Shown piece by piece: positions 1 to 46,820 of a DNA stretch of 64,000 nucleotides. The notes under the pieces are model-generated. The model had not been told where the DNA came from. It saw nothing but the letters and a program-made list of their open reading frames with translations, and did no database searches. This DNA comes from Clostridia bacterium (GTDB taxonomy: Bacteria > Bacillota > Clostridia > Oscillospirales > CAG-272). The position numbers were made by a program, and so were the translations under genes. The stretch covers positions 12,194-76,193 of the forward strand of contig JAFVTV010000038.1 in assembly GCA_017502975.1 (NCBI GenBank), given 5' to 3'. The first letter of the stretch is position 1, and each line of letters begins with the position of its first letter.

Positions 1-992
1 TTGAAGCCATTTATTTTGCCTCTATCGGAAAAAGCTTTCGGGGAAACCATACAAACGAAATGATACGGTTTGGGCAAAAGGAAGCGATTCTCTCGCTTGA
101 TTTTCGGGCGAGTGGAAGAGAGCAAACGATTTCTCTTTGTCTTGGTGGCGGCAGGGTGCGCGCGGCAGAAAAAAACCGTGTAAAAATACGCCGTATGTCT
201 GAAATAGTAGGTAGTTTTAGAACCGTGCTTTTCTGCCCCGAGCATTTGAGTCTGATTAAGGACGGTCCTGCCGAACGTAGGCAATTTCTTGATATTGCGA
301 TCAGTGCCGCCGATCCTCTTTATATGGGCGCGCTGCAACGCTACAATCGCGTATTAAAGCAAAGAAATGCGCTTATTAAAGCAGCCGAAAAGGATAAAGC
401 CTTATTTGATGCAACCGTTGATATTTGGTCAAAACAGTTGGCGCGTGAGGGTGCTTATATTGCAAAAAGCAGGCAACGGTACGTAGAAAATGCCGCGCAA
501 TACGTCAGGGAATGTTTCAGAGAAATGACAGGCTCTCGCGAGGAGCCCGCACTCCTTTACCTTGGTGTTGGCGGCAAGGATTTTACCGATTACAGCGACC
601 TCTTGAAAATCGAGGAGTTACTTTACCAAAAACTTTGCCAAAACCATGAAAGAGAAATTGCCGCGGGTGCTACCCTTTGGGGTATACACAAGGATGACGT
701 AGAGGTTTTGCTAAACGGTCGCGCGGCGCGCAGCTTTTGCTCACAGGGGCAGCAAAGATCGCTTGCGTTGGCACTGAAAATTGCCGAGGGCGAGCTTTGT
801 AAAGAGGATTGCGGCGAATATCCCGTGCTGTTATTTGACGACGTGCTTTCCGAGCTTGATAGCGGCAGGCGCGAATATCTTTTAAAGCATATCAAGGGCA
901 AGCAGGTCATTATGACGACCTGTGAAAAAGAAGGGTTTGAAGCCGATCATCTGATCGTAGTGAAAAACGGAACCTACCAAAGAATGGAATAG
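1..992 (+). CDS. recF: DNA replication and repair protein RecF, 5' end cut by the window edge
   Basis: The frame stays open upstream of the listed Met at 60 back to nt 3 (EAIYFASIGKSFRGNHTNE...). The C-terminal SMC-like signature region (SQGQQRSLALALKIAE, LLFDDVLSELD) is typical of RecF. recF-DUF370-gyrB-gyrA synteny supports the call. Confidence 0.9.
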   Translation, partial: EAIYFASIGKSFRGNHTNEMIRFGQKEAILSLDFRASGREQTISLCLGGGRVRAAEKNRVKIRRMSEIVGSFRTVLFCPEHLSLIKDGPAERRQFLDIAISAADPLYMGALQRYNRVLKQRNALIKAAEKDKALFDATVDIWSKQLAREGAYIAKSRQRYVENAAQYVRECFREMTGSREEPALLYLGVGGKDFTDYSDLLKIEELLYQKLCQNHEREIAAGATLWGIHKDDVEVLLNGRAARSFCSQGQQRSLALALKIAEGELCKEDCGEYPVLLFDDVLSELDSGRREYLLKHIKGKQVIMTTCEKEGFEADHLIVVKNGTYQRME

Positions 993-1000
993 AGGATACT

Positions 1001-1255
1001 ATGTTTTTACACGTGGGAAACAACAAAAACATCAGAAAAAAGGAAATCATCGGTATTTTTGATGCCGATACCGCCACCGTTTCGGTCACAACGAGAAGAT
1101 TTTTATCAAAATCTGACAAGCGTGGCGAGATAGAGGCGGCAAATGAGGAAATTCCGAAATCCTTTATTCTTTACAGAAAAAAAGAGGGATACGGTATTTG
1201 CTTTTCTCAAATATCAACCTCTGCATTGCTTGGCAGAAGCGAGCAAAACGGATAA
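1001..1255 (+). CDS. DUF370 family small protein (YaaB/RemB-like)
   Basis: 84-aa ORF between recF and gyrB, the conserved Firmicute position of yaaB/remB. The sequence (NIRKKEIIGIFDADTATVS...) resembles that family as I recall it. Confidence 0.7.
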   Translation: MFLHVGNNKNIRKKEIIGIFDADTATVSVTTRRFLSKSDKRGEIEAANEEIPKSFILYRKKEGYGICFSQISTSALLGRSEQNG

Positions 1256-1278
1256 TGAACAAAACAAAGGAAGGATAA

Positions 1279-3246
<1,968 letters not shown>

Positions 3247-3263
3247 TGAAAGGAGATAAAAAT

Positions 3264-5789
3264 ATGGAATACAAGAACGAAAATATTGAATTTCCCAATC
3301 AGATCATCGAAGATGTAGAGATGTCGGGGCGTGTCAAGCAGGCGTTTATCGAGTATGCAATGTCTGTTATCGTTGCCAGAGCCCTGCCCGACGTGCGCGA
3401 CGGTATGAAGCCCGGTCAGCGCCGCATCATGTATGCTATGTACGAGGATCACCTCACCTCGGACAAGCCCTTCTTTAAATCGGCTACCACCGTTGGTAAC
3501 GTGCTGGGTCGCTATCACCCCCACGGTGATGCCGCCGTTTACGGCACCATGGTGCGTATGGCGCAGGATTTCTCCTTGCGCTATCCGCTGGTTGAGGGTC
3601 AGGGTAACTTTGGCTCGATTGACGGCGATAGCCCCGCTGCTTACCGTTATACCGAGGCGCGCCTTGCCAAGATCTCAAACGAGCTGATGGCTAACCTTGA
3701 AAAGGAGGTCGTTCCCTTTGGCCCGAACTTTGATAACCGCCGCCGCGAGCCTCTGGTGCTTCCCTCGCGCTTTCCGAACCTCTTAGTCAACGGCTCGGTC
3801 GGCATTGCGGTTGGTATGGCGACCAATATCCCGCCCCATAACATGGGCGAGGTCATTGATGCAACCATTTATCGCATGGAAAACCCTGAGGCGACCGTTG
3901 AGGAGCTGATGCAGTACATCAAGGGTCCCGACTTCCCCACCGCCGCTACCTGCTACGGTGTGCAGGGTATCATCGATGCCTACCGCACGGGTAAGGGACG
4001 CGTGATGGTGCGTGCCAAGTGTGAGGTTGATGAGGAGAACCATTGCATCAAGGTAACCGAAATTCCCTACCAGGTCAACAAATCCGCGCTCGTTATGTCG
4101 ATTGCGGAACTTGTAAAGGATAAGAGAATTGAAGGCATTACCGATATCAAGGACGTTTCCTCTGACCGTAACGGTATTTGTATTTTGATCCCCTACCGTC
4201 GCGACGTCAACGGTCAGGTCATTCTCAATCAGCTCTACAAATACACCCAGCTGCAGGATACCTGCTCGATCAATATGCTCGCCCTTGTCGGCGGTGAGCC
4301 TCGCGTGCTTTCCCTGCCGCAGATCCTTGACTACTATATCGCGCACCAGATGGACGTGATCACCCGCCGCACGAAGTTTGACCTTGATAAGGCAGAGGCG
4401 CGCGCGCATATCCTTGAGGGCTATAAGATCGCAGGCGATCATATTGATGACGTTGTGGCGCTGATCCGTGCCGCTGCCTCGGTTGCCGACGCCAAGGAAA
4501 AGCTGATTGCAACTTACACCCTTACCGAAACGCAGGCGCAGGCGATCGTTGAAATGACGCTTGGTAAGCTGACAGGCCTTGAGCGACAAAAAATCGATGA
4601 TGAGCTTGAAAAGCTGCATCAGATGATCAAGGAGTTCCGTGCCGTGCTTGCCGATGAGCAAAAGGTTAAGGAGATCATCAAGGATGAGATGCTGGAGATC
4701 CGCCGTAAATACGCAGATGCACGCCGCACCGAGATCGTGGAGGCGACCGATGACATCGACCTTGAGGATCTCATTGAGCGTCACGATTGCGTGATCACCC
4801 TCACCCATGCCGGCTATATCAAGCGCCAGCCTGCCGATACCTATGCAGTACAGCACAAGGGCGGCAAGGGTATTATCGGTATGACCACCAAGGAAGAGGA
4901 CTTTATCGAAAAACTGATGGTGGTACACAGCCACGATTACCTCATGCTCTTTACCAATACGGGCAAGGTGTTTATGCGTAAGGCATATCAAATTCCCGAG
5001 GCATCGCGCACCGCAAAGGGCACCAATATCGTAAATGTTGTGGAAACCGTGCAGGGCGAGACCATTACCGCCATGATCGCCGTTTCCGAGTTTGATGACG
5101 AGCACTTCCTCACCATGGTAACAAGGAACGGTGTCATTAAGCGTACGCGTTTGAAGGAATACGAATACCAACGCAAGGGCGGTAAGATCGCGCTTTCGCT
5201 CGATGAGGGCGATGAGCTGGTGTTTGTGATGCACAGCAAGGGCGAAAACGACGTGCTGCTTGCAACGCACGAGGGTAGTGCCGCACGCTTTACCGAAAGC
5301 GCGGTAAGACCCCTTGGCAGAACGGCGCGCGGCGTGCGCGGCGTTAAGCTCCGTGAGGGTGACTATGTTGTAGGTGCCGTGATCGTTGACGACACCAAGC
5401 AGCTGATTACCGTAACCGAAAACGGATACGGAAAACGCACATCGTTTGAGGACTTCCGCCAGAAGGGCAGAGGAGGCCTTGGTGTTACCTGCCACAACCT
5501 GACCGAAAAGACAGGCTTGCTTGCAGGCATTGCCGCTGTGACCGATGAGGATGATCTGATGATGATCACCAACCTTGGTACGATCATTCGTACCCCCGTG
5601 GCGCAGATCAATACCTACTCCCGTACCGCCGCAGGCGTTATCGTCATGCGTCTTGGCGACGGTCAGACACTGGCAGGCTTCTCAAAGGTAGCCCATGAGG
5701 AGCAGGAGAATGAGGAGAATGCCCCCGAGGTACAGGTTGAAGTAACCGAGGCGCAGGCTCCCACTGCCGAGCAGCCCGAAAACAACTAA
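3264..5789 (+). CDS. gyrA: DNA gyrase subunit A
   Basis: Contains the QRDR-like region ([19 protein letters not shown]), the active-site [10 protein letters not shown] and C-terminal beta-pinwheel repeats. I prefer the ATG at 3264 (RBS aaaggaga) over the listed 3246. Confidence 0.96.
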
Positions 5790-5798
5790 AATAAAAAA

Positions 5799-5836
5799 GA
5801 CAGCCCCGAGTATGCTTTGACATATTCGGGGTTGTC
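5799..5836 (+). terminator. Stem-loop downstream of gyrA
   Basis: GACAGCCCCGAGTATG / CATATTCGGGGTTGTC arms (two G-U positions), 10 nt after the gyrA stop. There is no clear T-run, so the assignment is tentative. Confidence 0.45.
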
Positions 5837-5951
5837 GCAGGCATAGCCAAGGCGAGCCCCACAGGGCATATCTTTTGGTAAAAAGAGGTGCAGGGGCGCC
5901 GTATGCCTATCACAATATCCCCCAAAACGGGGCAAAAAACAGGAGATTTAT

Positions 5952-6917
5952 ATGAAAAAACGTCTGATAGCCGTTATCGTGGCAATCGCGTTGATACTTG
6001 TATCACTGGGGGTGTTTTTGGTGGTGAGGCATATCAAAAACAATCGCCCGCCCGAGCTTGAGAGCCTAAGACCTCGCGTGATCGCACTCATTGACGCTTC
6101 GCATGAAATCAACGAGATCTTTTGGGGCGAGGGGCTTTCCACCCACCCGCGTGTATACCGCGAATACTATACACGTGTGCCGTTTTATTTGCAAGAGGAC
6201 GGCGATCACTATACCTTCAGCGACGCGCAGACCGACTACAAGCTCTATTATTATACCTTTACCGATGCAGAGGTTGGTGACATTCTTGCGTATCAGTATT
6301 GTCTGAAGGTCGCTGACGGCGTGTACGTTGACGTAGAAAAGGGTGGCGCCCTTACCATTGCCGATAAGATCAAATACCGCTACGCAAGAGTTTCGAGCGA
6401 GTGGGAGGAGGGCGTAATTTTTGAAGCGGGTGGAAAATACTATATCCCACTGCCCTCGTATGTCGAAAAGGAAGCGGATTTTTATTATACTTCCCAAGAT
6501 CCCGAGTATTACGACTATGTGCGTGATGATGCGGGGTATCTCACCACTGCCGCCATTAAGAGCAAGGCAGAGGGCGTTTATGCCAATGATTTTCTCTCCT
6601 CCGTGTATGAAAGTCTCTTTACGGGTATAACGATATCCGACAGCCAAAACGGCACGCTTTATGCGCGCTATATCGATCATACCGACACTGAGGGCAACGG
6701 CTATTTGATGAAGTCCAATATATGGACAGCGATACAGGTTTCGCGCGTTTATCTTTATGACACCATGCGTATGAGCGAGAAGCGCAAGAGTAACGCCACC
6801 GACGTTTTTATTGATATCGACAGCTACGTGCCCGGTAAGGAGAGCGAAACGCAGACCATTACCCTTTCCTTTACCCTGCAGGACGGCGCGTGGTATCTTA
6901 ATTCTGCAACCTATTAA
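5952..6917 (+). CDS. Hypothetical membrane-anchored exported protein
   Basis: 321-aa ORF with an N-terminal hydrophobic anchor (LIAVIVAIALILVSLGVFLVV) and a Tyr/Asp-rich ectodomain. I recognise no family. Confidence 0.6.
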   Translation: MKKRLIAVIVAIALILVSLGVFLVVRHIKNNRPPELESLRPRVIALIDASHEINEIFWGEGLSTHPRVYREYYTRVPFYLQEDGDHYTFSDAQTDYKLYYYTFTDAEVGDILAYQYCLKVADGVYVDVEKGGALTIADKIKYRYARVSSEWEEGVIFEAGGKYYIPLPSYVEKEADFYYTSQDPEYYDYVRDDAGYLTTAAIKSKAEGVYANDFLSSVYESLFTGITISDSQNGTLYARYIDHTDTEGNGYLMKSNIWTAIQVSRVYLYDTMRMSEKRKSNATDVFIDIDSYVPGKESETQTITLSFTLQDGAWYLNSATY

Positions 6918-6985
6918 GGGGCAGACCCCTTCCTGCATTTTGCTGCGGAAGGCTGTATCCCCATGCCCCCTGTTCGTATATTTGT

Positions 6986-7010
6986 GTAGGGGCGATTCAC
7001 GAATCGCCCC
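6986..7010 (+). repeat. REP-like hairpin, class iii (GTAGGGGCGATTCACGAATCGCCCC)
   Basis: GTAG head followed by a 9-10 bp perfect stem, located in intergenic DNA. Related copies lie at 26421-26442 and 26853-26876. Confidence 0.7.
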
Positions 7011-7118
7011 TGCGAGAAACTGTATCATTGTGCACCTTGTTCACACTGTATTATTCCCTTTCCCAAGATTTTTGGGAGTGTGGGAGTGAATGTTTTTTGC
7101 CGTGGGGCAAAAAACAAA

Positions 7119-7156
7119 GAGGGAGAGAGGACTTTTGCAAAAGTCCTCTCTCCCTC
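7119..7156 (-). terminator. 38-nt perfect palindrome; terminator of the acyl-CoA ligase gene
   Basis: GAGGGAGAGAGGACTTTTG|CAAAAGTCCTCTCTCCCTC. On the minus strand it is followed by TTGTTTTTTGCCCC and sits about 20 nt after the stop at 7178. Confidence 0.75.
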
Positions 7157-7177
7157 TCTTATTTTCTCCCTACTCAA

Positions 7178-8872
7178 TCATTTCACCAAGTGGCGTTTGA
7201 TCTTGCGGGAGGTGGTTTTTTCAAACTCGGTATCACGAATCTCAAGCCCCTTGATCTTTTTAAAGGAGGGGAGTTTTTTGTTGAGGTCGGTGAGTTTACC
7301 GTAAATCACCTTGTAAACGGTATCGGCATCGGCGCTCTCACCGAACAGATCCTTGTTCGGGTATACCACGGCGGTCAGCAGCACGGTTTCACCATCGGTA
7401 TCCTTTCTGCCAACCACAACGCTTTCGGCAATCTCCTCAATTTTTTCAAGATATTCCTCGATCTCCTCGGGGAACACGTTTTTGCCGTTTTCCAGCACGA
7501 TGACGGATTTCAGACGACCCGTGATATAGATATAGCCCTCAGCATCCATATAGCCAACGTCCCCCGTGCGATACCAGCCGTCCTCGGTAAATGCCTTGGC
7601 ATTCTCCTCGGGATTGTTGTAGTAGCCAAGCATGACGTTCTCACCCTTGACCTGGATCTCACCCTCTTCAAAGCCCTTGTCGTTGACGTTGCCTGTTTTG
7701 GCAATGCGTGACTCGCAGCAGGGCACAGCAGGGCCGACCGAGCCGGGCTTTGGCGCATAGTAGGGTGCAACGGAAATCAGCGGCGAGCATTCGGTAATGC
7801 CGTAGCCCTCGCAGATCTGGATGCCAAATGCCTCAAAATTCTTTACCATTTCGGGGTTTAGGGGCGCGCCGCCGCAGATGATCTTTTCAAGGCGACCGCC
7901 AAAGGCGGCAAGAACCGAAGAAAAGAGTTTGCGGCGCAGGTCTATGCCGACCTTTCTCATACCGTTTGAAATTTTGATCATGTTGCGCAGTAGTTTTTCC
8001 TTGCCCTTTTTGCGTGCCTCGTCCCAGATCTTTTTGTACATCGTGTTGACGAACAGCGGCACGAGGATAAGACCCGTAGGCTTAAACTCCGCAAAGTTGC
8101 GCATGAGGTGGCGGAGCGTATCGTTGATGCCGATGGAAATGCCGTAGCAAAGGCTGGCAAGCATGATGGCAAGCTCGTAGGTGTGGTGCAGGGGGAGTAC
8201 CGAAACGGTTACGTCGTTTTCGTTGAAGTTTACGGTATTACAAGCCGCATTCACGCACGCGCAAATGTTCTTCTCACAGAGCATAACGCATTTGCTAGAG
8301 CCCGTGGTGCCCGAGGTAAAGAGCATCACGGCAAGCGACTCGGGGTCGCGATCAGGGAGCTGATAGCCATTCTCAAGCGATTTTTCTCCCATTTTAAGGA
8401 TTTCTGCAAAGGGAACGACCTTTTCCGTGGCACAATCCTCTTGGGGCTCCATAGGCACAAAAATACGCAGTGTGGGATGGCGCTCCATTACGGCTGCCAT
8501 TTTTTGATTGAAGCTCGCGGAATAAACGATCGCTTCCGCATCAACGCTTTCAAGTAAGCCCTCGATCTCGCCAATGGCAAGCTCCTTATCCATGGGGATG
8601 ATCACGCCGCCCGCAGCTGTGACCGCAAGGTAGGTGGCAACCCACTCGGGCGAGGTTTCGCCAATGACGGCAATGCGCTTGCCGGCAAGCCCCAATGCAC
8701 AAATGCCTGCCGCTAAGGTGTGTGCCTTGTGTGAGAATTCTGCATAGGTAAGCGCGCCAAAGGTCTTGCCCACGGGAAAGCGAAAGGCATTCTTCTCTCC
8801 CCTTGCCGCAAGCGCGGGGATCATATCCCTAAAGGAGTTCATGGGCGTAAAGATACGCGGCGTTTTTTTCAT
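7178..8872 (-). CDS. AMP-dependent synthetase/ligase (long-chain fatty-acid-CoA ligase-like)
   Basis: 564 aa with the AMP-binding motif LFTSGTTGSSK, plus GYGITE and YRTGD motifs. Confidence 0.85.
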   Translation of the reverse strand: MKKTPRIFTPMNSFRDMIPALAARGEKNAFRFPVGKTFGALTYAEFSHKAHTLAAGICALGLAGKRIAVIGETSPEWVATYLAVTAAGGVIIPMDKELAIGEIEGLLESVDAEAIVYSASFNQKMAAVMERHPTLRIFVPMEPQEDCATEKVVPFAEILKMGEKSLENGYQLPDRDPESLAVMLFTSGTTGSSKCVMLCEKNICACVNAACNTVNFNENDVTVSVLPLHHTYELAIMLASLCYGISIGINDTLRHLMRNFAEFKPTGLILVPLFVNTMYKKIWDEARKKGKEKLLRNMIKISNGMRKVGIDLRRKLFSSVLAAFGGRLEKIICGGAPLNPEMVKNFEAFGIQICEGYGITECSPLISVAPYYAPKPGSVGPAVPCCESRIAKTGNVNDKGFEEGEIQVKGENVMLGYYNNPEENAKAFTEDGWYRTGDVGYMDAEGYIYITGRLKSVIVLENGKNVFPEEIEEYLEKIEEIAESVVVGRKDTDGETVLLTAVVYPNKDLFGESADADTVYKVIYGKLTDLNKKLPSFKKIKGLEIRDTEFEKTTSRKIKRHLVK

Positions 8873-8955
8873 AATTTATCCTCTTTTCCGTGCTTGTTTT
8901 TTCTTTGCGAGAAGCAAAGGCTCTCACCCGCAGAGAAGGTGCACGATTATATTTT

Positions 8956-8985
8956 ATTATACCCCAAAAACAGCACATCTGTCAA
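8956..8985 (-). promoter_or_regulatory. Sigma-A-type promoter for the ligase gene
   Basis: On the minus strand: TTGACA, 18 nt spacer, TATAAT. Confidence 0.5.
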
Positions 8986-9108
8986 GTAATGGAAGCGTTA
9001 CAAGAAAAAGGTGTTTGCAATATGGTAAAATGTGGAATATAAACGGGTGGAAAAGGGCCTCTTTCTCTAAAAACCATTTTGCACAGGCGCATTATTTGCA
9101 CAATCTCT

Positions 9109-9234
9109 GTAGGGGGCGGCGCCTCGACGCCCCGCCAGCTACGATATGTAAAACATGTACACATATTGTAGGGACAGGCGCCCTCGACTGTTCGGGATCT
9201 TGCGCCAATGGGGCGTCGAGGCGTCACCCCGTAC
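9109..9234. repeat. Cluster of three REP-like hairpins (BIME-like)
   Basis: 9109-9135 is GTAGGGGGCGGCGCCTCGACGCCCCGC (class ii, + orientation). 9168-9194 is GTAGGGACAGGCGCCCTCGACTGTTCG (class i, +). 9210-9234 is the reverse complement of GTACGGGGTGACGCCTCGACGCCCC (class ii-like, -). Confidence 0.75.
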
Positions 9235-9365
9235 AAAGAAATTTTCAATTCTTTAGACAAGGTGTTAGCGCAAGGGAAAATAAAATATCGCCCCACCGCG
9301 GCACACTCCAAACGGAGCACGCTTTGGTCGGGCGATATCTTTATAAAGCTTGGTTTTTACGGTGC

Positions 9366-9869
9366 TCAAAGCAGCGCGTCTATCATCGAAAGCACAAAGG
9401 GGATCAGCTTGATGAGCAGGATCGCAAGACCGATCGAAAGGATAACGGTGAGCATGAATTGCAACGGGCCGTTTCCCTTTTTATCAAAGCGCCCCTCGGC
9501 GCGGTATTTGAGTGCCTCGGGAATATAGTAGCGTGTGTCGTTCCCTTCCCCCTCTACCTTTTGAACGGTTTTTTGCAGCACGAGGTTGTGGCGCAATTCA
9601 AAGCCAAGTAAGCTTTTTTTGCTAAGATCGAGCTCCGCAAGCGTTTTTGCCGCGTCGGGCGATAGCGCCCCGGCGCCAAGCAACGCACGCACAAGGCTGC
9701 CGGGAACACTACGCTGATAGAGCGTGTAAAGAGAGGAAAGCACAATGCCAACGCAAATGCCCAGTATAAGCAGCGTAACCGTTGCGGCATCGCTTTGGTC
9801 AAAGGTAATGTTTTCGTATTCCTTTGCCTCAAGGGTAAACAGAGAGACAAGGGAGAGCGGGGTGCGCAT
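9366..9869 (-). CDS. Hypothetical integral membrane protein
   Basis: About 167-aa ORF with two or three hydrophobic segments. Its ATG overlaps the serS stop (TGATG), which suggests translational coupling. Confidence 0.55.
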   Translation of the reverse strand: MRTPLSLVSLFTLEAKEYENITFDQSDAATVTLLILGICVGIVLSSLYTLYQRSVPGSLVRALLGAGALSPDAAKTLAELDLSKKSLLGFELRHNLVLQKTVQKVEGEGNDTRYYIPEALKYRAEGRFDKKGNGPLQFMLTVILSIGLAILLIKLIPFVLSMIDALL

Positions 9870-11152
9870 CAAAGCGTCTCGGGCTTGATCACATCACAGC
9901 CCATGTAGGTGCGCAGTGCCTCGGGAACGGTCACGGAGCCGTCCTCGTTTTGATAGTTCTCAAGAATAGCCGCAACCGTACGGCCGACTGCTACGCCCGA
10001 GCCGTTTAGGGTATGCACCAAGCGGGGCTTATCCTTGGGCGTTTCACGGAAGCGGATGTTTGCGCGGCGTGCTTGGTAGTCCTCAAAGTCAGAGCAGGAG
10101 GAGATCTCCACATAACGGCCGTAAGAGGGCATGTATACCTCAATATCATAGGTCATGGCGCTGGAGAAGCCAAGGTCGCCCGAGGAAAGACGCACAACGC
10201 GGTAAGGAAGGCCAAGGCCCTGCAAAACGCGCTCGGCATCGTTTGTCAACTTTTCAAGCTCCTCATACGAGGTCTCGGGGCTGGTAAATTTTACCAATTC
10301 GACCTTGTTGAACTGATGCTGACGGATAAGACCTCTTGTATCACGTCCTGCAGACCCCGCCTCGGCACGGAAGCAAGCGGAATATGCGCAGAAGGAAAGG
10401 GGCAGCTTTGCGCCGTCAAGGATATCGTCGCGATACATGTTGGTAACGGGCACCTCTGCGGTGGGGATGAGGAAGAAATCGTTGTTTGCTACGCGGAAAG
10501 CGTCCTCCTCAAACTTCGGCAGCTGACCCGTGCCGCGCATCGAGTCGCGGTTTACCATGTAGGGCGGGAAAATTTCGGTGTAGCCGTGGTCGGTGTGGGT
10601 GTCAAGGAAATAGTTGATTATGGCGCGCTCCAAGCGAGAGCCCATGCCACGGTAAAAGTGGAAGCGCGCTCCCGTAACCTTTGCGGCGGTGTCGGGGTCG
10701 AGAATACCAAGTTCCTTGCCAAGATCCCAGTGTGCCTTGGGCTCAAAGCCAAAGGCTTTGGGCTCGCCCCAGCGGCGCATCTCCACATTGTCGGTGTCAT
10801 CCTTACCTACGGGCACCTTTTCGTTTGGGGTGTTGGGAATCGAAAGCAGAATGGTGGAGATCTCGCTGTCAATGGCGGAAATCTTTACTTCATCAGCCTT
10901 TACCGTTTCGGAGAGTTTCTTCATTTCCGCAAAAATGGGTGCAACGTCCTTCCCTTCCTTCTTCAGGGCGGGAATTTGCTTGGAAATTCTGTTTTGCTCC
11001 GCCTTTTTCTGCTCGGTATCGGCAATCAGCGCGCGGCGCTCCACGTCAAGCGTGAGCAAGCGGTCGATATCCGCGCTGTAATCCTTCTGACGGCTTGCAA
11101 GACGCTCCTTGACAAGCTCGGGGTTTTCTTTAATAAACTTAATGTCTAACAT
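9869..11152 (-). CDS. serS: Seryl-tRNA synthetase
   Basis: The N-terminal coiled-coil arm begins [16 protein letters not shown] and class II aaRS motifs are present. I chose the start at 11152 because the listed 11203 start would overlap parB. Confidence 0.95.
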
Positions 11153-11169
11153 AGTATGGCCCTCTTTTC

Positions 11170-12069
11170 TTATTCTTCCTCGGCAAAAAGCCCGTCGCCG
11201 CAAAGCGCTGTTAACAGCGCTTCCATATCGGCATCATCCTCGTAAAAGATCTCAATAGAGCGTTTTTTGTCGTTTTGTGTAATTTTTACTTTTCTGCCAA
11301 GGGCTTCGCGCGTGCGTCGCTCCAGATCCTTCATCCATACGCGGGTTTGTGCGTGCCCTGTGATATCGGGCAATTCCTCGCGGGGCTCGGTATTTTCGCG
11401 CTTTACAAGCGCTTCAACCTCGCGCACCGAAAGCTTTTTCGCCGCAATGCGCGCCGCCAACAAGGGGATCATTTCTTCATTTTTCAGCGCAAGCAACGCA
11501 CGGGCGTGTCCTGCGGTCAAAAATCCATCCTTTTCCTGCAGAAGTGTGAGCACTTCATCGGGCAGATCGAGCAAACGAAGGGTGTTTGCCACGGCAGAAC
11601 GGGATTTTCCCGCAATTTTTGAGACCTCCTCCTGCGTCATGTCGAAGCGCTCCATCAAGGCATTGTAGCCAAGCGCCTCCTCAACAACGTTAAGATCCTC
11701 ACGCTGTACGTTCTCAATGAGTGCGATCTGCGCGGTTTTCAGGTCGTCACCGTCAAGCACAACGGCAGGAATTTCGGTAAGCCCTGCCATTTTTGCGGCG
11801 CGCCAGCGGCGCTCGCCGGCAATGATCTCATATGCACCCTCAAAATTGGGGTTGGGGCGCACCAAAATAGGCTGAAGTACACCGTAAGCGGCGATGCTGT
11901 CGGCAAGCGCCTCAAGCGCCTCGCGGTCAAATTGCTTGCGGGGCTGATCGCTGCGCGGCTCAATTTCGGAAATGCGCAGTGTGGTGGCAGTTCCGTCCTT
12001 CATGCCCATGATGTTGTCGTCGAGTATGGAGTAAAAGTCTTTTCCAAGAGCACTTTGTCTTTTGGCCAT
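11170..12069 (-). CDS. parB: Chromosome partitioning protein ParB/Spo0J
   Basis: ParB box ([17 protein letters not shown]), an HTH region ([24 protein letters not shown]) and a position downstream of parA. Confidence 0.92.
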
Positions 12070-12129
12070 GTTGTTTCTCTCCTTATTTTTTTATAGTTGT
12101 TGGCACAAGGCGCTTTTTTTGCGCACCGT

Positions 12130-12891
12130 TCAGGGGCGCTCGTGTAGCTCCTTGGCAAATTGCAGATAATCTGCGGTGCCTTTTGCGCGTTTATCGTAGT
12201 AAACGATAGGCTTTCCAAAGCTTGGCGCCTCGCACAGACGCACGTTTCTGCCGATGGTCGTGGTAAAAACGCGGTCGCCGTAGTGCTTTTTTAACTCTTC
12301 CTTTACCTGTATGGAAAGCGCAAGGCGTGGATTGTGCATGGTTAGCAGAATTCCCGTTATTGAAAGGCGCGGATTGTAGCGCTTTTTGATGTGCCCCAGC
12401 GTGGTGGAGAGCTGCGTTAGCCCTTCCAGCGCATAATATTCGCATTGCATGGGGATTACCACGCCGTCGCTTGCGGCAAGCGCGTTGATCGTCAGCATAC
12501 CAAGCGAGGGCGGACAGTCAATAATAATATAATCGTAGCGATAACGGATGTCGGCAAGCGCGTTCTTGAGGTGCGCCTCATCCCCATCTCCGTCAAGCAG
12601 GTCAAATTCAGCACCGGCAAGCGAAATATTGGCGGGAATCAGGTCAAGCTTGCGAAAGCCCGTGGGTAAAACGGCGTCCTCTGCGCGGCAACCGCCAACA
12701 AGCAGGTCACGCACAGTAAAGCGCAGACCCTTTTTGCGCACACCAACACCGCTTGTGGCGCTTCCCTGCGGATCAAGGTCGATCAAAAGGGTGTCAAATC
12801 CAAGAGAGCCAAGACAAGCGGCAGTATTTACGGCGGATGTTGTTTTGCCAACACCGCCCTTTTGATTGGCAAATGCGATAATTCTGCCCAT
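12130..12891 (-). CDS. parA: Chromosome partitioning ATPase ParA/Soj
   Basis: Deviant Walker A motif (NQKGGVGKTT). I prefer the start MGRIIAFANQ at 12891 over the listed 12945. Confidence 0.92.
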   Translation of the reverse strand: MGRIIAFANQKGGVGKTTSAVNTAACLGSLGFDTLLIDLDPQGSATSGVGVRKKGLRFTVRDLLVGGCRAEDAVLPTGFRKLDLIPANISLAGAEFDLLDGDGDEAHLKNALADIRYRYDYIIIDCPPSLGMLTINALAASDGVVIPMQCEYYALEGLTQLSTTLGHIKKRYNPRLSITGILLTMHNPRLALSIQVKEELKKHYGDRVFTTTIGRNVRLCEAPSFGKPIVYYDKRAKGTADYLQFAKELHERP

Positions 12892-13182
12892 GGTTGCTTT
12901 TGGCACTCCTTTCCGCGGTTGCGTGTCGCTATCGCACGTGGGCAAATATGTTGAGCCCGCCGTTTGACGCGTATCGTGTGTATTATTATATCATTTAAAC
13001 CGCATTTTTGCAACAGTATTTTACCGATTTTTTGATTTTTTTACGCGCGCGATAAAATAAGGAGAAAAAAGCACGCGCGGTAAACGCAAGGGCAAAAGGA
13101 ACTGCAATGTGCAAAACAAAACAAATAAAGGCTTGTCGGTGTAAAAATCGGTGATGTTAAGGGTAAATCATAGCGTTTCGCT

Positions 13183-13411
13183 TGTTTCACGTGAAACATT
13201 TGCAAAAGCACAACCAAATTTGCCGCTATTTTGATATGGCGCAAAACTCGTTGCTTAGCGTTTCACGTGAAACATTTTTTTAAGCATCCTCGGCACCGGC
13301 AAGAAAGGATTGCGTTTTTGTTTCACGTGAAACAACGCCCTGTTGTGTGTAAAAGGTGTTTCACGTGAAACAATGCTTAATTTATGCGTGAAAAGTGTTT
13401 CACGTGAAACA
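13183..13411. promoter_or_regulatory. Array of five parS centromere sites
   Basis: The 16-mer TGTTTCACGTGAAACA occurs at 13183-13198, 13319-13334, 13357-13372 and 13396-13411. CGTTTCACGTGAAACA occurs at 13259-13274. Both fit the Firmicute parS consensus TGTTNCACGTGAAACA. Confidence 0.9.
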
Positions 13412-13413
13412 AA

Positions 13414-14406
13414 TCACCCCTTTTTGGGAATGCGAATAAGAATGTGCGCAAAATCCTCGTCCTCTTCCCTGCGGTATTCTGCGCTGACGCCCGTCTTTTC
13501 AAAGATACCCAGCGTGCGCTCAATAGAATTGTATAGTGGCTTTAGGTCGCGCAGGGCAAACTTGCGCGGCGTAACCCCCACCCCTTGCACGTTAAGCGCT
13601 TGCTTTTGCGGCAATAAGGGCTCGTTTTCGGCGCTTTTTTGCTGTTTTGGGGTAAAAAACACGTCCATTTCCTGTTTAAGCGTGGGTGTTGGGTCAAGCC
13701 CCCCATCTTTTTTGTCGTTTACAAGAGCCGCTTTGTTGCCCAAATGCAGATCCACCAGTGCCTCTGTACTTGCTACGTTGCGGTTCTCCCGCTGGGCGGC
13801 GGCAATCACCTCAAGGCGCGTTGCCGGGTCTGTGATCCGCAAAAAAGCGCGCGCGTGACGCTCAGAAAGTCCGCCCGCCACAATGATACGGCGCTCCTCG
13901 GGGGTCAGTTTTAGCAAACGAAGTTTGTTTGCTACGGCAGATTGTGAGAGTCCCATCTTTCTTGCAATCTCTTCTTGCGTCATATAATACTCCTGCATAA
14001 GGCGAGAAAATGCCTCTGCAAGGGCAAAAAAGTGCAGATTTTCGCTCCTTAACTGCAAAATTGCCGCCATTTGCAGGCATTTTGCGTCATTTGGCGGTAG
14101 TACAAGGCAGGGGAGCTTGTCCATACCTGCAAGGGCGGCGGCGCGAAAGCGGCGCTCGCCGTCTATCAACTCATAGATGGGAAAGCCGTCCTTCTGCGTG
14201 GATAATTTTACGCAGATCGGCTCTAAAATGCCGTATTTTCTAATGGATGCGGCAAGTCTAATGATGGCATTTTGCTCATTTTTGGGGTTTTGCGGTGCGC
14301 TTTGCGCCAAAATTTGCTCTGCGGCAAGAAAAATAGGCGTTTCAACCGCATTTCCCCTGCCAAAATGCATTGCCGAAGCGGTCGTGCTGCTATATAAACT
14401 CTTCAT
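13414..14406 (-). CDS. ParB/Noc-family paralog (nucleoid-occlusion-like)
   Basis: 330 aa with a ParB box (YELIDGERRFRAAALAG) and an HTH (MTQEEIARKMGLSQSAVANKLRLL). It sits between rsmG and parA, as noc does in Bacillus. Strong RBS ggaggt. The C-terminal ~130 aa are not ParB-like by eye. Confidence 0.75.
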   Translation of the reverse strand: MKSLYSSTTASAMHFGRGNAVETPIFLAAEQILAQSAPQNPKNEQNAIIRLAASIRKYGILEPICVKLSTQKDGFPIYELIDGERRFRAAALAGMDKLPCLVLPPNDAKCLQMAAILQLRSENLHFFALAEAFSRLMQEYYMTQEEIARKMGLSQSAVANKLRLLKLTPEERRIIVAGGLSERHARAFLRITDPATRLEVIAAAQRENRNVASTEALVDLHLGNKAALVNDKKDGGLDPTPTLKQEMDVFFTPKQQKSAENEPLLPQKQALNVQGVGVTPRKFALRDLKPLYNSIERTLGIFEKTGVSAEYRREEDEDFAHILIRIPKKG

Positions 14407-14633
14407 TTTTAACCTCCATATTGAATTTTGGCTTCAACTGTATCATATCACAGGTGTGTAGGGGAAAAATGTCACAATATAATGGAAAAATATGGAAATT
14501 ATAAACAAATTGCAGCAGGTAAGAGGGAATATAAAGTCACAAGGTGGATTTCAAGGAGAAAAAGCGCCTTGCCCGTGGAAAAACTGCGCGCAAGCGTCGA
14601 TTTTTGTCTAAAAAGCGCGATTTTAATGAAAAA

Positions 14634-14659
14634 TACCCACAAAGCCATGTCTTTGTGGG
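14634..14659 (-). terminator. Bidirectional stem-loop downstream of rsmG
   Basis: ACCCACAAAG-ccatgt-CTTTGTGGGT, flanked by T-runs on both strands. Confidence 0.6.
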
Positions 14660-14764
14660 TGTTTTTATGGTATAGATACGGTGTTTGCCCTATAATGGGC
14701 TAAGTATTTTGGTTTGTTCGGTATTTTTGCGTAATTTTTTGACGGGTTTGCTTATGGCTAGGCT

Positions 14765-15520
14765 TTAAAGCGGCTTTTTGAGAATGCGCGCAAAGGGGCG
14801 CGGCAGATCCGGGGGAGTGGGCTTGACCTTTTTGATCTCGATGAGCAAACGCTCATCGCCCTCGCCCTCCCCTACAAGTGTAATGCTTTTTGTTTGGATC
14901 ACGGCGCCGCCAAGGCGTGCAATGGCGCGCTCGGCAGCAGCAAGCTCCTCCGCGCCCCGTTTTGCCTTCATGGCAACGAAACTGCCGCCAAGGCGCACAA
15001 ACGGCAAGCAAAGCTCGGCTAGCACGGGCAAAGCCGCCACAGCTCGCGCCGTGACAACATCATACTGCGCGCGGTGGGGGGAATTGTGCGCCAATTCCTC
15101 CGCGCGTGCCGCAATGGCGGTAAAATGGGGGATCTCGAGGCTGTTTGCGGTGTTTTGCACGTAATTGATACGCTTTTCGGTGCTATCAAGCGCTGTAATG
15201 CTAAGATCGGGGCGAAAAATGCCAATCGGCAGGCAAGGGAAGCCCGCACCGCACCCAACGTCAAGTATTTTGGCGTTTTTCGGCAAAAATGGCGCTACGG
15301 TAAGGCTATCAAGGAAATGACGGACGATAATCGCCTTTTCCTCCTTAATAGCGGTCAGATTCATGGTTTTTCCCACCTCAAGCATATGCTGCATGAGAAA
15401 ATAGAACTTCCTTGACTGCGCTTCATCAGCAAGTGGCGAAAAACCATTATCTGCCATAACGGTATTTAAAAAGTCGTTAAATTCATTAAAATTCATTTGA
15501 GTGAAATGCTCCTTGAACAA
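14765..15520 (-). CDS. rsmG: 16S rRNA (guanine527-N7)-methyltransferase RsmG/GidB
   Basis: SAM-binding motif (ILDVGCGAGFPCLPIGI) and a position downstream of mnmG. The start could instead be the ATG at 15496. Confidence 0.9.
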   Translation of the reverse strand: MFKEHFTQMNFNEFNDFLNTVMADNGFSPLADEAQSRKFYFLMQHMLEVGKTMNLTAIKEEKAIIVRHFLDSLTVAPFLPKNAKILDVGCGAGFPCLPIGIFRPDLSITALDSTEKRINYVQNTANSLEIPHFTAIAARAEELAHNSPHRAQYDVVTARAVAALPVLAELCLPFVRLGGSFVAMKAKRGAEELAAAERAIARLGGAVIQTKSITLVGEGEGDERLLIEIKKVKPTPPDLPRPFARILKKPL

Positions 15521-15801
15521 TCAGTATGTTGTGGTAGCCTTGTAAAAGAAAATTGCTCGACATTGCTCGCTTATAGGGTTACAGTCCTTGTTTTTCGTGG
15601 CTTGCACGGCTTTTTTGTTGATTTTTTGCGGCTTGCCCTGATTTTGACGGCTCTTTTGGACAGCTTGTGGGTAAAACCATGCCGATCATGTGCCTTTGTG
15701 AAGGCAATTTGGGGCTGTTGCGAGTAACATTACGCGATTGCGTGCCTTTGCAAGCGCAATTTTGCACTGTTTCGGGTGTTTCGTGGCAAAATCCCGCAAA
15801 A

Positions 15802-17667
15802 TCAATGCACACCAAGGTAAATAAGCAGCACCGAGATGTCGGCAGGGCTTACACCACTGATGCGCGAGGCTTGCCCAACGGTGGCGGGGCGCATGGCGGA
15901 AAGCTTTTGTGCCGCTTCTATTCTAAGACCGGTTATTTTTTGATAGTCAAGGGTGTCGGGGAGCATTCTTGACTCTAACTTTTCATGCCGAGAAACTTCT
16001 ACCATTTGGCGGTTAATGTAGCCTTCATACTTGATTTGAACCTCTGCAGAAAGTGCCGCTTTTTTTGTCAGCTGCGGGCGCGAGGGGTCAAGAGGCCTGA
16101 GAGAATCATAGGTAATGCCGGGGCGGCGCAAAAGATCGGCAAGAGAGATGCCTGTGGAAACGGGGGATTGCCCCAATTCCGTAAGAAACGGGTTGACCAA
16201 CGCGGGGGAAAGGTGCGTGGTATTCAGGCGCGTGATCTCCGCCGCGATGGCGGCTTGCTTTTCTTCAAACGCGGCAAAGTGTGCGTCATCGATCAGCCCA
16301 ACCTTGTGTGCAAGGGGCGTCAGGCGCGCGTCTGCGTTGTCCTGGCGCAGCAGTAAGCGGTATTCCGAGCGTGAGGTCATCATGCGGTAGGGCTCGTTTG
16401 TGCCCTTGATGATAAGATCGTCAACCAAGGTGCCAAGATAAGAGCTGGAACGCGGCAAAATTACAGGGGGCTGCCCCTTTACCTTAAGAGCGGCATTCAT
16501 GCCGGCAAGCAGGCCCTGTGCCGCCGCCTCCTCGTAGCCCGAGGTGCCGTTAAACTGCCCCGCGCCGAAAAGGCCGCCGATCTTTCTGAATTCAAGGGTT
16601 GCGCCAAGCTCCGTGGGGTCACAGCAATCATATTCTATTGCATAGGCGTAGCGCATCATCTCCGCGTGCTCAAAGCCGGGGAGCGTGTGCAGCATTTCTG
16701 CCTGCACGTCGGTAGGCAGAGAGGTTGAAAAGCCTTGCAAGTAAAGCTCATCCGTATCAGCCCCGATCGGCTCAAGAAAGAGTTGGTGGCGCTCCTTGTC
16801 GGCAAAGCGCACGACCTTATCCTCGATCGAGGGGCAATAACGGGGACCTGTACCGTGAATATGGCCGCCATACATGGCGGAACGGGATAGGTTTTCGCGA
16901 ATGACGCGATGTGTTTCTTCGTTGGTATATACAATGTGACAGGGGAGCTGCGAAACACCTGCCATATAGTCCTCGGGGGTGTCGGCGGCATAGGGCAGGG
17001 GGTCAGCCTCGCCCGGCTGCACCTCTAAGCGGTCAAGCGCCACAGATCGGCGGTTGATGCGCGCAGGTGTGCCTGTTTTAAAGCGGCGCAGGGTCACACC
17101 AAGGTCGCTAAGGGCTGCGGAAAGTCCGCGCGAGGGCAAAAATCCGTCGGGGCCGCTTTCGTAATTCACGTCGCCCACAAAAATGCGGCTTTCGAGGTAC
17201 GTGCCTGCGGCAACAATGGCACATTCACATGCCCAAAGCTCGCCAAGATGGGTCATTACCCCGCAAACGTGATGATTTTCATCGGTTTTGACCGAAACGA
17301 TCTCGGCTTGCACAAGGCGCAGATTTTCTGTGCGCTCAAGCACCGATTTCATGTATGCCTGATAGTGCTTGCGGTCTGCCTGCACGCGCTTGGAGTGCAC
17401 GGCGGCACCCTTACCAAGATTCAGGGTGCGCGATTGGAGCGTTACGGCATCTGCCGCGCGACCCATTTCGCCGCCGAGCGCATCGATCTCATACACGAGA
17501 TGCCCCTTTGCCGTGCCCCCGATCGAGGGGTTGCAGGGCATATTGGCGATCGCCTCAAGAGAAATGGTAAATAAAACGGTATCAACGCCCATGCGAGCGC
17601 TTGCCAGCGCCGCCTCGATGCCGGCATGCCCCGCACCGATCACGGCGACCTTGGTAGAAAGCTTCAT
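15802..17667 (-). CDS. mnmG: tRNA uridine 5-carboxymethylaminomethyl modification enzyme MnmG/GidA
   Basis: 621 aa with an N-terminal FAD motif (VAVIGAGHAGIEAALASARMG) and sequence characteristic of GidA throughout. Confidence 0.96.
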   Translation of the reverse strand: MKLSTKVAVIGAGHAGIEAALASARMGVDTVLFTISLEAIANMPCNPSIGGTAKGHLVYEIDALGGEMGRAADAVTLQSRTLNLGKGAAVHSKRVQADRKHYQAYMKSVLERTENLRLVQAEIVSVKTDENHHVCGVMTHLGELWACECAIVAAGTYLESRIFVGDVNYESGPDGFLPSRGLSAALSDLGVTLRRFKTGTPARINRRSVALDRLEVQPGEADPLPYAADTPEDYMAGVSQLPCHIVYTNEETHRVIRENLSRSAMYGGHIHGTGPRYCPSIEDKVVRFADKERHQLFLEPIGADTDELYLQGFSTSLPTDVQAEMLHTLPGFEHAEMMRYAYAIEYDCCDPTELGATLEFRKIGGLFGAGQFNGTSGYEEAAAQGLLAGMNAALKVKGQPPVILPRSSSYLGTLVDDLIIKGTNEPYRMMTSRSEYRLLLRQDNADARLTPLAHKVGLIDDAHFAAFEEKQAAIAAEITRLNTTHLSPALVNPFLTELGQSPVSTGISLADLLRRPGITYDSLRPLDPSRPQLTKKAALSAEVQIKYEGYINRQMVEVSRHEKLESRMLPDTLDYQKITGLRIEAAQKLSAMRPATVGQASRISGVSPADISVLLIYLGVH

Positions 17668-17697
17668 AAGATCTCCTTTAAAGGGTTTAGATGAGAG

Positions 17698-18258
17698 TTA
17701 GCGTGTGGTGTTCGATAAAACGGTGCCGGACGGGTTGTAAAAACGGCACACGGATAGCATTTTTGCGGTTGCCTCGAAATAAAAGATCGCGCGGCGCTTT
17801 TCGCGGTTCTTGTCGTTGCCCAACTCAAAAAGCATAATATAAATATCGGGAGCAGACATGCTTGAAACACCCACAAACTCGCGCTCGGGCGCATAGGCGG
17901 TTGCGCGATCTGCTTCCAGAGGGGCTTCAAGGGGCGCAATACGCACGGCATCCTTTAGCTTCATCTCAAATATCTTGCGGCGCGAACGGTTGCCAAAGAC
18001 CTTTGTAAAGGTGAGTGTGCCTGAGGTAACGGAGTATTCATAATCCACCGAAACATAGCGCCACGTGATAAAAATAATCAGCCAAAGCGAGAGGGGGACA
18101 AAGGCAAGCAGAGGTGCTATAATTTGAGCTTTCATACCAAAAAACAGGACCACCAAGGGATAAAGGCAATAAAACGCGATAAGTCCGATCCGCGCGGCAA
18201 GCCACTTGCCCACTGTTTTTTGTGAAACAACAAATTCATAGGTTAAAAACTCATTCAC
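17698..18258 (-). CDS. Hypothetical membrane protein (two TM segments plus a soluble C-terminal domain)
   Basis: 186-aa ORF with a GTG start after AGGAG. It occupies the position upstream of mnmG where mnmE is usually found. Confidence 0.5.
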   Translation of the reverse strand: MNEFLTYEFVVSQKTVGKWLAARIGLIAFYCLYPLVVLFFGMKAQIIAPLLAFVPLSLWLIIFITWRYVSVDYEYSVTSGTLTFTKVFGNRSRRKIFEMKLKDAVRIAPLEAPLEADRATAYAPEREFVGVSSMSAPDIYIMLFELGNDKNREKRRAIFYFEATAKMLSVCRFYNPSGTVLSNTTR

Positions 18259-46359: not shown

Positions 46360-46626
46360 ATGAACAGATTAAGGGATGTTAGAGAGGATTTTGATTTTAC
46401 CCAAAAAGAAATTGCCGAAAAACTGCATATTCAGCAAACACACTATTCGCGGTACGAACGTGGAAAGCAGATGATGGGAATTGATAAATATATGATTCTT
46501 TCTCTTTTTTACAATATTTCCATCGATTATCTTTGCGGAATGGTAGATACGCCCCGCACCTTGACGGGAATAAGTTACAAAGAGAATTTGCAGATTAAAA
46601 AGAAAAAACAAAGGGACAGTAAATGA
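46360..46626 (+). CDS. XRE-family helix-turn-helix transcriptional regulator (orphan, AT-rich)
   Basis: 88 aa with the HTH region FTQKEIAEKLHIQQTHYSRYERGK. Its composition is much more AT-rich than its neighbours. Confidence 0.8.
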   Translation: MNRLRDVREDFDFTQKEIAEKLHIQQTHYSRYERGKQMMGIDKYMILSLFYNISIDYLCGMVDTPRTLTGISYKENLQIKKKKQRDSK

Positions 46627-46698
46627 ACTGTCCCACAGGTATATGCTCTGTTTTTAAAGGCCTAGGGCTGTTGCGTTTAAGTTATGTTGCATAAAAAA

Positions 46699-46820
46699 GC
46701 CTCCCCTGTGTAAGGGGAGGTGGCTTGAGAAGCAAGACGGAGGGATTGTAAAAGCATAAATACTTTGCCAAAAACAATCCCTCACCGCCTTTGGCGGAGC
46801 TCCCTTTACACAAGGGAGCC
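46699..46820. repeat. Inverted pair of a ~50-nt two-hairpin repeat (copies R1 and R2)
   Basis: R1 (46699-46749, +) is GCCTCCCCTGTGTAAGGGGAGGTGGCTTGAGAAGCAAGACGGAGGGATTGT. R2 (46774-46820, -) reads GGCTCCCTTGTGTAAAGGGAGCTCCGCCAAAGGCGGTGAGGGATTGT. A third copy lies at 63882-63931. Confidence 0.7.

Follow-up and report, generated by a model that had tools for sequence, protein, structure and literature searches.

We found five copies of the canonical parS palindrome packed into 229 bp upstream of parA on the chromosome of an uncultured gut Clostridia bacterium. This array is most likely (with a probability of roughly 0.8) the chromosomal centromere, and probably the sole one, whose five sites would load the canonical ParB encoded next to them. 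Mechanistically, it is an ordinary ParB-parS system. The notable part is its architecture, i.e. a sole locus in a fixed position with a tight pitch, and its evolution.

ParB binding, clamp loading and a role in segregation are what we infer for this array from its sequence. One ParB dimer would be bound per parS site, CTP binding would turn the dimer into a closed clamp able to slide away from parS, and five sites in 229 bp would thus make up a single multi-entry ParB loading zone. About 15 kb from oriC, this zone could seed one partition complex of ParB for the segregation of origins by ParA and probably also for the loading of SMC. Most likely, the five sites represent an expanded form of a parS doublet that many genomes of the order have upstream of parA. 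Within the genus the array is maintained at 3-7 copies and continually remodelled via tandem gain and loss of units that each comprise a parS and its spacer.

The array and its genomic context

The window, i.e. the whole 64-kb stretch of DNA that was analysed (C39:12194-76193), contains exactly five matches to TGTTTCACGTGAAACA at ≤2 mismatches, all within positions 13183-13411 (229 bp), where dinucleotide-preserving shuffles of the window give a chance expectation of 0.05 matches on average and 1 at most. Four of the five are perfect and one carries a single mismatch, and they follow the 16-bp consensus palindrome TGTTNCACGTGAAACA. The features of the locus, in window coordinates, are as follows.

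15802-17667, minus strand: mnmG
14765-15520, minus strand: rsmG
13414-14406, minus strand: ParB paralog of 330 aa at the noc position, with Noc structures as best PDB matches
Between the paralog and parA: intergenic region of 522 bp that holds the array
13396-13411, no strand: parS site 5, perfect, separated by 2 nt from the Noc-type paralog's stop codon, an anchoring kept in relatives
13357-13372, no strand: parS site 4, perfect
13343-13412, no strand: tandem pair of 39-bp units, each made up of a parS and its spacer, with 87% identity across 31 nt
13319-13334, no strand: parS site 3, perfect
13259-13274, no strand: parS site 2, CGTTTCACGTGAAACA, one mismatch at an outer position
13183-13198, no strand: parS site 1, perfect TGTTTCACGTGAAACA, at the array end nearest the promoter
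12130-12891, minus strand: parA/soj, 253 aa, deviant Walker ATPase with KGGVGKTT, short chromosomal type
11170-12069, minus strand: parB/spo0J, 299 aa, with the CTP motifs GERRWRAA and ENVQRED and the recognition residues R..T..D..G
Beyond parB, minus strand: serS

The sites are spaced by 76, 60, 38 and 39 bp, and this irregularity argues against strict phasing in the source genome. A regular 38-bp lattice with decayed members was ruled out, as the 60- and 76-bp gaps hold no parS relics at ≤5 mismatches. Sites 4 and 5 lie in a 39-bp tandem duplication (positions 13343-13373 and 13382-13412 share 87% identity across 31 nt), whose two units are to all appearances a recent local duplication. In these respects the original prediction was accurate: it had described four perfect copies and one singly changed copy of a canonical parS at the same five starts, with identical spacings, the last two sites in a 39-bp tandem duplication and the fifth ending 2 nt before the stop of the noc-like gene (site end 13411, stop codon 13414-13416). 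The gene map also agrees with its view of a single dense array between the noc-position gene and parA.

No other parS was detected at ≤2 mismatches in the whole 1,661,828-bp assembly, a MAG of 56 contigs that is 83.9% complete, and further parS could sit in the missing 16%. The earlier statement that the 64 kb contain no further parS thus holds for the entire assembly, and the genome-wide scan for the 16-mer at 2 mismatches that had been proposed as a check revealed no dispersed parS outside the array in this 83.9% complete MAG. All five occurrences of the 12-mer core TTTCACGTGAAA in the assembly belong to the five array sites. Matches with three mismatches number eight, are scattered and all lack the conserved core, and the half-parS GTTTCAC is not enriched genome-wide (73 occurrences, about 101 expected). 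The genome encodes only two ParB-family proteins, both at the par locus. Every detected parS also lies inside the array in two near-complete relatives, G008 (97% complete) and G014 (95% complete).

The array (C39:25376-25604) is origin-proximal, being located on the same contig as dnaA (C39:9108-10469) and about 15 kb from both this gene and the GC-skew switch, where the sign changes at ~8-12 kb of contig C39. The context is that of a chromosome and not of a plasmid, with dnaA-gyrA on one side and mnmG-rsmG-paralog-parA-parB-serS at the locus itself.

Two side observations concern the organization of this genome. The genes from dnaA through gyrA are encoded on the plus strand and mnmG-rsmG-paralog-parA-parB-serS on the minus strand (C39:9108-30000; window 1-17700). 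Since this par/gid block lies on the same side of the GC-skew switch as dnaA-gyrA, it is transcribed head-on to replication, an orientation that is unlike the Bacillus arrangement. Furthermore, two 14-bp perfect palindromes, GCCGGATATCCGGC and ACATCTTAAGATGT, occur seven times each, always ~50 bp apart and mostly <200 bp from a contig end (in G000 the pairs are at C1:41-103, C6:40-102, C35:40-102, C41:163-225, C41:3222-3284, C46:3-65 and C56:13760-13822). The pair probably belongs to the end region of a mobile element whose multiple copies break up the assembly.

Conservation and turnover of the array

The array is a lineage trait of the genus. One to seven parS (≤1 mismatch) were detected in 21 of 24 other species, always in a single cluster in those genomes whose positions were listed, and the three genomes without parS are 70-82% complete. 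Across 19 related loci, the window included, we counted 2-5 sites each, which lie between the paralog and parA wherever both flanks were mapped. With two exceptions, the first site at these loci starts within ~25 nt of the paralog stop codon. The MAGs in which ParB relatives were found are labelled Oscillospiraceae, Clostridia or Eubacteriales and come from sheep, goat, roe-deer and human gut.

Within this fixed position, the array changes rapidly. While the 16-mers are invariant among relatives, the spacers diverge, being alike inside a species and unrelated between species, which indicates that local tandem duplication and loss keep renewing the array units. Duplicated units measure 39 bp in the source genome, 38 bp in L002, 34 bp in L003, 75 bp in L004 and 66 bp in L005, and an indel leaves the closest relative, whose ParB is 98% identical, with four sites against five here. 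The original prediction had suggested a check of whether copy number varies by tandem expansion; the comparison of relatives, with 1-7 sites and duplicated units in several species, shows that it does. Of 55 inter-site gaps, 33 (60%) measure 32-40 bp, and 32 bp is the minimum. In one relative, the sites have altered centres (L018:2791-2915), with CACATG in three of the four and CATGTG in the fourth instead of CACGTG, which suggests a concerted change of the whole array.

Such conservation also bears on the question of whether the repeats are protein-binding sites at all. Repeats can be mishandled in MAG assemblies, and the transcript of the region is predicted to fold strongly (z = -5.6), as might be expected if the repeats were repetitive DNA devoid of function, part of an RNA element or a product of misassembly. 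But this fold is a trivial outcome of repeated palindromes, the 16-mer is a textbook parS that stays invariant despite spacer divergence, the same architecture recurs in independent MAGs from different studies and hosts, and unique spacers make a collapse or expansion during assembly unlikely. We therefore consider this explanation extremely improbable. An RNA element was rejected, as Rfam yielded only sub-threshold microRNA matches and the stable fold is a by-product of the palindrome repeats. A function of the parS hairpins as intrinsic terminators of the paralog gene was likewise discarded: there is one weak terminator-like match, which lies inside the gene end, and no consistent U-tracts follow the sites in relatives.

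Beyond the genus, we searched for dense pairs, defined as two exact cores 30-60 bp apart. Such pairs, nearly always one per genome, occur in 51 of 301 genomes (17%) and 36 of 152 genera of the order, and 18 of 20 sampled pairs are located directly upstream of parA, often with a Noc-type paralog on the other side. In the phylum, 40 of 301 genomes and 35 of 222 genera contain a dense pair, with zero control matches. Larger arrays in other families of the phylum arose independently. One of them (G591:C16:1281-1489) comprises six parS at an exact 39-bp period with a half-parS-like GGTGAAACGCGAC in each spacer, and another genome, G374, has two arrays of three and five GTTCCACGTGGAAC-type sites 2.2 kb apart (C14:44309-44398 and 46558-46727). 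The contrast with the single, scattered parS of Bacillus drawn in the original prediction is thus valid, but the layout is not unique, given dense pairs in 17% of the sampled genomes of the order and larger arrays elsewhere in the phylum.

It is conceivable that the 32-40-bp pitch and the multi-copy state have been selected. A 'super-parS' would then have evolved repeatedly in single-centromere gut Clostridia, with cooperative clamp loading at the minimum steric spacing and an array renewed by tandem duplication, and co-directional transcription of the Noc-type gene would sweep clamps toward the parA promoter, thereby coupling array occupancy to parAB expression. This scenario is speculative and we regard it as doubtful; if true, the arrays would represent a distinct, convergently evolved centromere design and no chance cluster.

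The predicted ParB reader and the parA promoter

The canonical ParB is the predicted reader of the array, based on its RxxG recognition residues and CTP motifs, as opposed to the Noc-type QKKR set in the paralog. ParB matches the ParB structures of Caulobacter, Thermus and Myxococcus with E-values of 1e-55 to 1e-51. Aligned to Caulobacter ParB (6T1F), it has R and G at two DNA-contact positions (R173 and G201 equivalents), both of which are invariant among parS-binding ParBs (Jalal et al. 2020, PMC7383237). The putative CTP-binding and hydrolysis motifs GERRxRA and ENxQRxDL are present as GERRWRAA and ENVQREDL, and a 253-aa KGGVGKTT ParA is encoded immediately upstream of parB. The paralog has Q-K-K-R at four specificity positions and a degenerate ENxQRE motif (LQLRSE). 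In experiments, the QKKR set switches Caulobacter ParB from parS to NBS preference (PMC7383237), and the Noc-type paralog is accordingly predicted to lack a preference for parS. This split between RxxG in ParB and QKxR in the paralog is kept in every relative where the residue pattern was matched, with QKKR, QKRR or QKQR in the paralogs. The paralog evolves much faster than ParB, its identity across relatives falling from 88% to 40%, as compared with 98% to 77% for ParB.

The array might nevertheless be read mainly or additionally by the Noc-type paralog, for example as a hub for membrane tethering or nucleoid occlusion at the origin. The anchoring of the first parS within ~25 nt of the paralog stop codon in nearly all relatives would fit such a role, as would the genome itself, which offers the paralog neither a Bacillus-type NBS (consensus ATTTCCCGGGAAAT, ≤1 mismatch; none in the array either) nor any other dispersed NBS-like palindrome that is enriched genome-wide. 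The paralog residues in the source genome and its relatives are, however, of the very type that shifts ParB from parS to NBS preference, and arrays or doublets also precede parA at loci with no detected paralog in the vicinity. A second palindrome in the array, moreover, is absent in the source species, and eight relatives yielded only an unrelated 10-mer in L012. A reading by the paralog is thus very unlikely. Noc sites interleaved with the parS were ruled out, as the array contains neither an NBS nor a second palindrome.

With the canonical ParB as the predicted reader, its own expression could be affected by the array. The relevant features of the intergenic region are the following.

12985-13013, minus strand: predicted parA-parB promoter, -35 TTGCAA, 17-nt spacer, extended -10 TGnTATAAT, almost unchanged among relatives
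13014-13060, minus strand: A-tract (UP-element-like) block with the CG-rich palindrome TTACGCGCGCGATAA (13038-13057), just upstream of the -35

The promoter is the best sigma-70-like site on the gene strand (TTGCAA, 17 nt, TATAAT and an upstream TG at 13013..12985; 10 of 12 matches). Together with the A-tract block, it forms the most conserved part of the intergenic region in an alignment of 15 species, in which it is always located between the array and parA. The TTACGCGCGCGATAA palindrome with its flanking A-tracts hardly varies in L001 and L002, can still be recognised in L005 and L022, and is possibly an operator for some regulator of parA-parB. The distance between array and promoter varies across species from ~25 to ~170 bp: the nearest parS lies ~25-50 bp upstream of the -35 in L006, L007, L009, L010 and L011, and in the source genome site 1 is ~170 bp away. 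In none of the 15 aligned loci does a parS overlap the -35, the -10 or the spacer.

The array had originally been thought to overlap the parAB promoter and to impose strong autoregulation. The first of these claims conflicts with the ~170-bp distance to the conserved promoter and with the 15 aligned loci. Since the two do not overlap, strong autoregulation could only come about through ParB spreading, which rarely silences genes in the chromosomes studied (PMC4010829, PMC7022226). In such a scheme, the array would be centromere and autoregulatory operator at once, with ParB clamps that spread over the parA promoter and repress parA-parB in a copy-number-sensitive feedback. The array is indeed upstream of parA in every relative, and in several species no more than ~25-50 bp separate the last site from the -35. 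Spreading of ParB usually extends over kilobases and would still reach the promoter here, a plasmid test showed silencing of a promoter at a distance of 200 bp from parS (PMC4010829), and ParB is reported, as cited in the same paper, to autorepress the parAB genes of S. coelicolor. In B. subtilis and V. cholerae, though, silencing correlates poorly with spreading, and parAB is not autoregulated (PMC4010829, PMC7022226). A par operon that uses parS as operator (type Ib plasmids; S. coelicolor parAB) would be expected to have sites overlapping the core promoter, in contrast to the situation here (promoter at 13013..12985, parS from 13183 onward), and a variable array-promoter distance (26 to ~170 bp) is unlike the fixed geometry of an operator. 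Autoregulation by the array thus appears rather unlikely to us, if still worth considering, and we prefer to view the array as a centromere that loads the canonical ParB.

Comparison with known partition systems

In its components, this centromere resembles the chromosomal ParABS systems of Firmicutes and other bacteria (B. subtilis Spo0J-parS, Caulobacter ParB-parS), with which it shares the 16-bp consensus palindrome, an origin-proximal position adjoining soj/spo0J-type parA-parB genes, the CTP-clamp motifs and RxxG. It differs from the ParABS of model organisms in its layout: there, 1-10 sites are distributed over kilobases to hundreds of kilobases, whereas all detectable sites lie here in 229 bp upstream of parA. 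B. subtilis has one parS inside spo0J, unlike the present locus, where all are in one intergenic region. According to reviews, one to four parS is the number in most species, at least 20 occur in some, these sites are located in the origin domain, and one site suffices (PMC10786196, PMC7022226). Gut bacteria of the OMM12 consortium have 1-10 parS, mostly clustered at 5-kb resolution (PMC10197239).

A genus-wide tight, fast-evolving tandem array, which serves as the only detectable centromere and has a fixed position upstream of parA, is a natural layout that differs from these reviews. In literature phrase searches, which had the main comparative parS survey outside their scope, we came across no report of Clostridia in which natural parS sites are arrayed upstream of parA with a pitch of 32-40 bp. 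Closely packed parS arrays have been used as artificial substrates in single-molecule work (PMC8299390). The array and its relatives are natural test substrates for the question of whether packed ParB-CTP loading sites cooperate or interfere, and they also bear on the minimum inter-site spacing and on the feedback of a par-adjacent loading zone on par expression. In fragmented MAGs, the array could moreover serve as a practical marker of the origin region.

Two further known systems are close to the array. In the F-plasmid sopC, a 43-bp unit is directly repeated 12 times, and SopB binds a 16-bp inverted repeat in every unit (PMC3177203). Both sopC and the array have tandem units with one 16-bp palindromic ParB-family site each, a pitch of ~40 bp and an evolution by unit duplication. 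sopC is, however, located on a plasmid, downstream of sopB, is highly regular, has another motif and is paired with a type Ia ParA that carries a regulatory domain at its N-terminus, whereas the array described here is chromosomal, upstream of parA and irregular, consists of canonical parS and is paired with a short 253-aa ParA. Its repeat regularity is limited to two clear 39-bp duplicates among five irregularly spaced sites, with units of 34, 38, 66 and 75 bp in relatives.

The densest chromosomal parS cluster that we found described in the literature is that of Myxococcus xanthus, with 22 parS in ~3 kb, ~4 kb upstream of parA (PMC3899335). Canonical parS are likewise clustered there in multiple copies on the chromosome, close to parAB, and serve as centromere, as is probable for the present array. 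The M. xanthus cluster has a mean pitch of ~140 bp, many more copies and a distance of 4 kb to parA; here, in contrast, five sites at 38-76 bp lie between the noc-position gene and the parA promoter. The advance therefore concerns the architecture and evolution of the array, while its sites, proteins and mechanism are otherwise textbook.
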